Below, in pieces: positions 29,762 through 30,503 of a stretch of 31,967 bases of DNA (positions are counted from its first letter, which is position 1; each line of letters begins with the position of its first letter). The stretch lies in the NCBI GenBank assembly GCA_963817915.1, contig CAWFQL010000005.1, forward strand, positions 1-31,967, given 5' to 3'. The notes under the pieces were generated by a model. The model was given only the letters and a program-made list of their open reading frames with translations, did not search any database and was not told the origin of the DNA. The DNA comes from an uncultured candidate division Zixibacteria bacterium (GTDB lineage: Bacteria > Zixibacteria > MSB-5A5 > UBA10806). The position numbers and the translations under genes are program-made.

Positions 29762-30503
29762 ATGAAAATATTAATTTCCATTTCAAAAATGATAGTTTTG
29801 CTAATATTGATTCTACAAGGTCCTGCCTTTGCCGGGCCAAAGTTGAAATTATCCGAAGTGGAGTTTGATTTTGGCAATGTGCCGCAGATGGCCAAAATTT
29901 CCCATGACTTTTGGCTTTATTCGATCGGGGACGATACTCTTAAAATTCTCAAAGTCAGCCCTGGCTGAGGCTGCACCCAGGCGCCTCTTGATAAAGAGGT
30001 TCTTGCTGTAGGTGACAGCACGAGACTCGAAATTATTTTTAATACCGGCAAATATGTGAACGCCATTTCCAAGTCTCCGGTAATTTTAACAAATGAAGGA
30101 CCACAGAAACAGCATTCTCCAAATAAAGACAAATATCTTTACAAGTCCGGATTCTACATTACCGATAACCATCATGCCGTCAATAATCGATTTCCCTGAT
30201 TCGGGCGAAACAATAGTGAAAGAGTATTATTTTTCCATCACTAACAAATCGAAGCAGCCCCTGCGCCTCACCCTGGTCAGTTCTCCTAAATCTCTGGTTT
30301 CGGTCACTCTTCCAAAAACGATTCCGGCCGGCGACTTTGCGGATGGCATCATCAAGCTTAAGGATGTGGCAATGAATAAGGTTTTTGAGAAATCAGTTAC
30401 CATAGAGCTTAACGACGCCAGCCATACCCGGTTTACCATACCAATTAAGCGCGGCACTGTCCCACCGCCTAAGCCAGCGGCCAAGGGGCAAGGTAGTCAT
30501 TAG
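29762..30503 (+). CDS. Secreted DUF1573-like (Ig-fold) protein, candidate selenoprotein (UGA at 29966..29968); additional frameshift near 30110
   Basis: FDFGNV..HDFWLYSIGDDTLKILKVSPG*GCTQAPLDKEVLAVGDSTRLEIIFNT..ILTNE, then ORF 30093..30503 supplies a second Ig-like domain. Confidence 0.8.
29969..30019 (+). promoter_or_regulatory. Putative bacterial SECIS element
   Basis: CCTCTT-GATA-AAGAGG hairpin (29984..29999), G-first loop with 21 nt between UGA and loop; extendable lower pairing. Confidence 0.7.

Follow-up and report, generated by a model that had tools for sequence, protein, structure and literature searches.

The consensus bacterial SECIS (Zhang and Gladyshev 2005, restated in Fig. 2A of the available text of PMC13188914) is a hairpin in the coding region 3' of the UGA, with a loop of 3-5 nt and the pattern G[G|U], which most published loops are reported to carry (same text). 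Its limits are a loop of 3-9 nt, a stem of 4-16 bp, a G in the first two loop places, a distance of 16-37 nt and a minimum free energy (MFE) of -7.5 kcal/mol or lower. In E. coli, the core stem-loop lies 11 nt from the UGA and presents G23 and U24 in its loop (available text of PMC8659212 and PMC11431864), and a docking model places a span of about 13 nt between codon and loop (available text of PMC4605307). Of the 57,630 entries in BSepDB, 87.4% have a canonical SECIS, the remainder being listed as uncharacterized (PMC13326102), and a 2026 review states, in the part available, that distinct SECIS classes must exist (PMC13188914).

The DUF1573 selenoprotein was predicted as OS_HP2 in Olavius symbionts (PMC1976440) and is tabulated with the motif UGC or UxC (PMC9312934, PMC13188914, PMC2398784), according to the available text of these sources. 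The legend of the SECIS figure in the available part of PMC1976440 deals with five of six new families, and OS_HP2 is not among the five. No description of the SECIS of this family was found in the literature searched, and the searched part of the BSepDB supplement held no DUF1573 rows. Nor was a tandem, long-spacing SECIS found in the available text of the open-licence literature, including PMC13582414, PMC10778597 and section 5 of PMC13188914, subscription papers lying outside the scope of the search.

Here we analyse a window of 31,967 nucleotides from an uncultured candidate division Zixibacteria bacterium, in which an earlier note, written from the sequence alone, had pointed to a hairpin with a GAUA loop directly after an in-frame TGA. 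The gene resembles OS_HP2 in passing the PF07610 cut-off, in its U-G-C motif and in the pairing of Sec and Cys among homologs. We propose that the UGA is likely to encode selenocysteine (Sec) and that the signal is likely to consist of two adjacent hairpins: hairpin 1, the one noted earlier, would fold about 20 nt of spacer, and hairpin 2, with a GGU loop 41 nt out, would reach SelB at the usual distance. Like the consensus element, hairpin 2 is a coding-region hairpin 3' of the UGA with a short G[G|U] loop, most homologs having C-GGU-G with a closing pair. Unlike it, the tandem places this loop at 41-42 or 53 nt (37-41 nt in a second phylum) rather than 16-37 nt, and has a separate hairpin rather than a lower stem between the UGA and the core. 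With the E. coli fdhF SECIS, as given in the available text, it shares a short stem-loop, a G and a U in the apical loop and, once hairpin 1 folds, about 11-12 unpaired nt before the stem, whereas the predicted hairpin 2 has no bulged U equivalent to U17, the linear distance is about twice as long and a helper hairpin stands in between. The protein family is known; the likely tandem SECIS lies outside the 16-37 nt consensus.

The DUF1573 gene and its UGA codon

The gene lies at 29762-30503 on the forward strand, preceded by a Shine-Dalgarno-like GGAGGA (29746-29751, 10 nt 5' of the ATG), and encodes two Ig-like domains in a frame that is broken once, near 30105-30115. Its translated N-terminus (29762-29833) resembles a signal peptide, with a basic start, a hydrophobic core and an A-F-A end, and we infer that the product would be exported. 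In profile searches, the two pieces of the gene match PF07610 with E-values of 3.6e-15 and 2.3e-4, at 56.2 bits against a gathering cut-off of 26.1. The NCBIfam model of OS_HP2 (NF041425) gives 54.4 bits, under its curated cut-off of 100, a score that marks the gene as a predicted divergent branch of OS_HP2. The intact relative L294 is predicted to form two all-beta domains (pLDDT 90.6); a fold search with this model returned Ig-like/ASH-type domains alone, at a TM of about 0.4, and no functional lead, and a PDB sequence search with an 18-row alignment gave a single weak match, FAP81 (E 0.009). We would expect the exported protein, with its two Ig domains, to carry a redox-active or metal-binding U-G-C loop.

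The TGA (29966-29968, forward strand) stands in the translated motif P-G-U-G-C and takes the place of the first Cys of C-G-C, as judged from the alignment with Cys- and TGA-bearing homologs. Sixty of 61 genomes of relatives contain matches, and of those outside the window genome the 148 listed were used, 43 further matches existing beyond these; together with the genome's own matches, those listed give 151 distinct sites, 54 with TGA and 97 with TGY (TGC/TGT) at this codon. Additional sites came from a pattern scan, which is TGA-only by design and whose pattern ends 5' of hairpin 2. It returned at least 124 stretches, and of the 80 examined among those listed, 39 were dropped as chance matches and 41 kept (20 Zixibacteria, 17 uncultured Ignavibacteria, 1 GN15 and 3 unclassified). 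Metagenomes contributed 44 loci with 53 sites, of which four with other codons were dropped. The merged, de-duplicated set, in which the relatives' part stems from the matches listed, comprises 116 TGA sites, including those of the closest relatives, and 120 Cys sites.

The genome encodes selA, selB, selC and selD in a single cluster on contig C6, every score being over its cut-off. The C-terminus of SelB matches the SECIS-binding fragment 1WSU and keeps the SRKYV-PLLE stretch. Because the TGA occupies the family's Cys position, the family is a known predicted selenoprotein family and selA, selB, selC and selD are all present, the reading of this UGA as Sec is well supported by sequence evidence. 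That it is instead a true stop, a sequencing error, or a codon read as Cys, Trp or Gly strikes us as very improbable. The assembly does have errors, namely insertions in its EF-Tu genes, and SECIS-dependent insertion of Cys at UGA by tRNA-ReC has been described (available text of PMC13582414), but TGA recurs at the same codon in the 116 distinct sites, and the genome's selD carries an in-frame TGA of its own. We also rejected a reassignment of UGA to Trp or Gly, given that the genes neighbouring the DUF1573 gene end in TGA and that ARAGORN finds, among 45 tRNAs, a single one with a UCA anticodon (66.5 bits on RF01852, tRNA-Sec) beside a normal tRNA-Trp(CCA).

Further predicted Sec genes of the window genome (G000) are a TlpA-like UxxC gene, selD, a second DUF1573 gene and two Omp28-like UxxC genes (C6:121118, C6:202235, C12:84627, C12:166787 and C12:569661-570398). 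The genome-wide UGA scan was a coarse screen and missed one of the Omp28-like Sec genes.

Integrity and surroundings of the window copy

Relative to its closest intact relatives, which match it across two frames, the DUF1573 gene contains one extra base at 30105-30115 (near 30113, forward strand), which shifts the frame and would end the protein 77 codons after the Sec. Frameshifts affect each of three consecutive genes within about 1.2 kb, those for the permease, the ATPase and DUF1573 (at 28900, 29270 and 30110), and among the matches listed this is the sole one of 53 complete TGA genes with fewer than 164 codons after the Sec. Moreover, a second, intact Sec paralog is present on C12, and by eye the majority of the remaining long ORFs listed for the ribosomal-protein region appear intact, which runs counter to an argument from indel errors. 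The signal might accordingly be genuine in the relatives while the window copy is a decaying pseudogene without a full-length selenoprotein, a reading that is compatible with the tandem model and that we regard as a serious though minor possibility. Opposed to it are the nearly end-to-end tblastn matches that span the three genes across their breaks, and the close relatives, which are intact and syntenic, L294 carrying intact orthologs of all three genes in the same order. Since both EF-Tu genes are also broken by single-base insertions, at different places (G000:C17:469821-470654 and 485682-486572), the assembly has indel errors, and the frameshift in the DUF1573 gene is probably one of them rather than a sign of decay.

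The Sec gene closes a run (25134-30503) of genes for ArsR, Acr3, ArsC, a 252-aa protein and a MacB/LolE-type ABC permease and ATPase. Of 50 TGA-bearing loci, 15 have one or more of these neighbours, or the downstream repeat protein, within 1.5 kb, which places a subclade in surroundings of the arsenic-resistance type; other TGA-bearing loci are found in arrays of DUF1573 paralogs. The downstream ORF (30556-31242) is lipoprotein-like, has no match in Pfam or NCBIfam and contains three GMNPPHGQPNHRCD repeats, its ortholog in L294 containing two; it is possibly metal-binding. Elsewhere in the window, 19892-24852 holds a minus-strand ORF of 219 aa, then a TonB-receptor-like ORF and then an HmuY-family lipoprotein (PF14064).

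A helix without a fixed loop directly after the UGA

Hairpin 1 (29983-30000, forward strand) has a free energy of -8.7 kcal/mol and, on account of its association with TGA, is predicted to be a helper, or spacer-folding, helix. As described earlier, CCTCTT (29984-29989) pairs with AAGAGG (29994-29999) around GATA (29990-29993), with 21 nt between the TGA and the loop, and the additional pairing proposed below it (CAGG/CTTG with one G-U, ACC/GGT and GCTG/CAGC) is present in the sequence. The stretch 29969-30019, whose boundaries were chosen on the hairpin itself, folds as drawn at -23.6 kcal/mol (z -3.25, none of 200 shuffles as good), and the wider 29960-30030 gives a z of just -1.60, with 13 of 200 shuffles as good. 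When the protein is held fixed, a 6/6 stem in the hairpin 1 register appears in 1.06% of 5000 synonymous shuffles.

The earlier note took this hairpin for a consensus SECIS. Its loop of 4 nt, stem of 7 bp, leading G, distance of 21 nt and energy of -8.7 kcal/mol do fall within the published limits, but the fit is weak evidence alone and frequent at ordinary codons. According to our own approximation of the published model, which is distinct from bSECISearch, ordinary Cys codons of the same genome are followed by a loose version in 168 of 1500 sampled cases (about 11%) and TGA stops ending long ORFs in 39 of 415 (about 9%), and the strict form used in the note follows 16 of these Cys codons and 10 of the stops (1-2%). 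The usual G[G|U] pattern is absent from GAUA, and 14 of 72 homologs carry GU or GG among their first three loop nucleotides.

Comparison with Cys homologs, proposed earlier as a check, revealed a TGA-specific helix whose exact stem, register and loop are kept in few TGA homologs. The exact 6/6 stem is present in 11 of 116 TGA and 0 of 120 Cys sites (9 of the 116 with the loop G as well), and at least five of the six pairs in 31 TGA and 0 Cys sites. A helix of some kind within +11 to +36 is nevertheless stronger than in synonymous shuffles at TGA sites (mean z -2.45, 72 sites), whereas Cys sites are neutral (0.02, 120 sites). In a FastTree tree of 200 rows, with the Sec and the next 21 codons masked and with 23 TGA state changes, the upstream helix accompanies TGA in about 9 of 14 independent pairs, the reverse being seen in about 0.2 (median p 0.004, range up to 0.109). 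Together with the TGA/Cys alignment and the complete Sec machinery, the TGA-specific helix bears out the earlier claim that the TGA is no sequencing error. Given the difference in z between TGA and Cys sites, selection on hairpin 1 appears to act on the fold, whose register shifts, and not on the loop.

Two parts of the earlier interpretation found no support. GAUA had been taken as the apical loop bound by SelB, but loop 1 varies freely among homologs, from 3 to 12 nt and over many sequences without a common motif, and a GU falls within +21 to +25 in 1 of 93 TGA sites. The long lower stem had been included in the SECIS, but at synonymous positions its pairing is lost in 20 and 13 of 33 aligned sites, and in the CAGG/CUUG part two of the four pairs fail in 28 and 22 of the 33. 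We therefore rejected the lower stem as a functional element, its pairs breaking where codons vary freely. Its 3' strand overlaps the next hairpin, which is conserved.

A conserved GGU-loop hairpin further downstream

Hairpin 2 (30004-30020, forward strand), the predicted SelB-binding core of the SECIS, has 5-6 bp and an AGGUG loop at 30010-30014, 41 nt after the UGA. Its stem, the G in the first two loop places and the G[G|U] pattern agree with the consensus. Its spacing exceeds 16-37 nt, as it does in 89 of the 91 homologs with a GU-loop hairpin, where it is 41, 42 or 53 nt, and its energy of -6.2 kcal/mol alone misses the -7.5 limit, the two hairpins together reaching -17.0. Across homologs, the stem measures 5-7 bp and the GG of the loop is the Gly codon at +43. 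The distal hairpin is found in 110 of 116 TGA sites (92 at +43 and 18 at +54) and 5 of 120 Cys sites, the +54 variant being a different hairpin with a GGUC loop 53 nt from the UGA; six TGA sites have neither kind. The complete tandem is seen in 86 of 116 TGA sites, 1 of 120 Cys sites, 15 of 6394 Cys codons of the genome and 0 of 415 stops.

This distribution extends beyond what the protein sequence would produce, GGU hairpins being present in 41 of 54 TGA sites against 2.8 expected from synonymous shuffles. On the same masked tree, 10 of 14 independent supported pairs associate hairpin 2 with TGA and none shows the reverse (p 0.002). RNAalifold returned hairpin 2, and not the stem noted earlier, from 33 aligned sites that had been preselected for having the hairpin; in this alignment 93.9% of cells pair and two pairs change on both sides, and covariation is weak (0.117 against 0.176 for a slid control). 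Where the motif ends in G-D-S, it opens with the codon GCT in 90 of 106 TGA sites as against 12 of 61 Cys sites. At TGA sites Val also replaces the Pro typical of Cys homologs, so here it is apparently the RNA that shapes the amino-acid sequence. Opposite-strand ORFs, for example a reverse ORF of 71 aa at 29917-30132, were rejected as the source of the constraint, the pattern following the TGA/TGY state of the forward gene. Between 29700 and 30300, no Rfam family reached its gathering score, sX12 (20.3 bits, E 0.35) being the only match.

The AGGUG loop of the window gene arises from a change of the loop-closing C-G to A-G. It is common to the four closest relatives and hence not an error. This five-member clade offers the best case for the model of the earlier note, in which hairpin 1, with its G-first loop 21 nt out, is the SelB-binding SECIS at least in a small clade, hairpin 2 being either a relic or an element with a different function: the clade has a strong stem 1 with GAUA or GAAA loops and has lost the closing pair of loop 2, and hairpin 1 lies within all four published constraints. 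A G in the first two places of loop 1 is also common (56 of 72 homologs), and +22 is a G in 56 of 93 TGA and 48 of 120 Cys sites. This G stems mostly from Asp and Glu codons, however, in loops without a shared length or motif; the loose consensus fits 38 of the 116 TGA sites against the 110 with the distal hairpin; GU loops prevail in the class's other Sec gene families; and the same five genes retain every other synonymous base of hairpin 2. We consider hairpin 1 unlikely to be the SelB-binding element, and likely, from the sequence comparisons, to be only a helper that shortens the distance to the better conserved hairpin 2.

Competing folds and a proposed mechanism

The minimum-energy fold of the naked RNA is a long single hairpin (29970-30019, forward strand), in which 29970-29977 pair with 30011-30019. 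This long-range pairing excludes hairpin 2 and is poorly conserved at synonymous sites, yet it is favoured energetically (-25.0 vs -17.7). When at least 6 nt after the UGA are held unpaired, the predicted fold switches to hairpin 1 plus hairpin 2, whose helices often abut, 0-2 nt apart.

On a translating ribosome, the bases directly 3' of the codon in the A site are covered. We propose that a ribosome with the UGA in its A site would break the long lower stem and allow hairpin 2 to form, and that hairpin 1, extruded at the mRNA entrance, would leave about 12 unpaired nt between the UGA and hairpin 2 and bring the latter within reach of SelB, which would bind the GG(U) loop and deliver Sec-tRNA. 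The long distance of the loop is probably explained by its GG, which belongs to the conserved Gly codon 15 codons downstream.

Other selenoprotein families and a second phylum

We also examined 31 SelD sites (30 loci of 64 matches, plus the genome's own), 29 TlpA-like sites and 44 Omp28-like sites. Some of these were fetched for having TGA and the SelD loci came from tblastn, and in this sample a GU-loop hairpin is present in 21 of 21 TGA vs 0 of 10 Cys sites for SelD, 16 of 20 vs 1 of 9 for TlpA-like genes and 25 of 31 vs 0 of 13 for Omp28-like genes. The presence of an upstream helix (-3 kcal/mol or better) follows the distance of the loop: 0 of 36 with loops 17-24 nt out, partly for lack of room, 19 of 26, with a small helix, at 32-34 nt, and 89 of 89 at 41-53 nt. 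Helix strength grows likewise, from a median of about -4 at 32-34 nt to -10.3 at 41-53 nt. Against synonymous shuffles, upstream helices have mean z values of -1.06 to -2.45 at TGA sites and -0.07 to 0.13 at Cys sites. The linker left unpaired outside the helices has a median of 12-15 nt at near and far loops, a count with a floor of 10 because 10 nt were forced unpaired; in the +54 group, shuffles give almost the same value (14 vs 15.6). SelD-type loops at 32-33 nt are already within the published SECIS range.

These data bear on a further alternative, in which SelB binding falls to hairpin 2, and the main effect of hairpin 1 would be to slow the ribosome or curb termination at the UGA, or to stack on hairpin 2 in one composite binding surface, rather than to adjust distance. 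Stacking would be possible given how close the helices often lie, and the SelB hinge is said to absorb differences in spacing (available text of PMC4605307), but near-loop Sec genes of the class do without the upstream helix, and the rise of helix strength with distance is what distance compensation would lead one to expect. We judge this alternative improbable and retain the view that hairpin 1 folds spacer away.

A second phylum was sampled through a Desulfobacterales record (301 genomes), from which we took the top-ranked OS_HP2 genes, quite different in sequence. A detector requiring GU found 0 of 24 there, the loops being GGN. With a GG criterion and thresholds that were fitted after the data had been seen, both hairpins occur in 38 of 43 TGA vs 2 of 28 Cys sites; 40 of 43 vs 11 of 28 have a GG loop at a distance of 37-41 nt. 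Hairpin 2 is partly dictated by the protein in this phylum (mean z -1.19), and 15 of the 28 Cys genes fold there too.

We lean, by a modest degree, towards a general form of the model, in which bacteria have a tandem SECIS class: a sequence-free helper hairpin would fold the spacer away, SelB would measure the unpaired length (about 12-15 nt) and not the linear distance, and the loop would be free to lie at 30-55 nt. Such a class would extend over two phyla and three or more selenoprotein families, and would explain part of the selenoprotein genes without a canonical SECIS. The tandem is a concrete candidate for a SECIS class and comes with a rule open to one reporter series. If the model is true, SECIS predictors choose the wrong hairpin in such genes, as the earlier note did, and engineers of recombinant selenoproteins could place the loop, whose sequence is constrained, at a distance from the codons of the active site.

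Related Sec and Cys genes among relatives

In the relative G055, which has TGA-bearing genes and a selD with TGA, no SelB match was found. The locus L032 of this genome (G055:C77) is a Cys paralog that lies beside a Sec copy and has its second hairpin still intact, which suggests a recent change from Sec to Cys. In nine relatives (L140-L148), open frames of 713-796 codons include a SelD-like domain of the Cys type, apparently as a fusion, and some genomes with these long SelD-like frames also have a short TGA-type selD.
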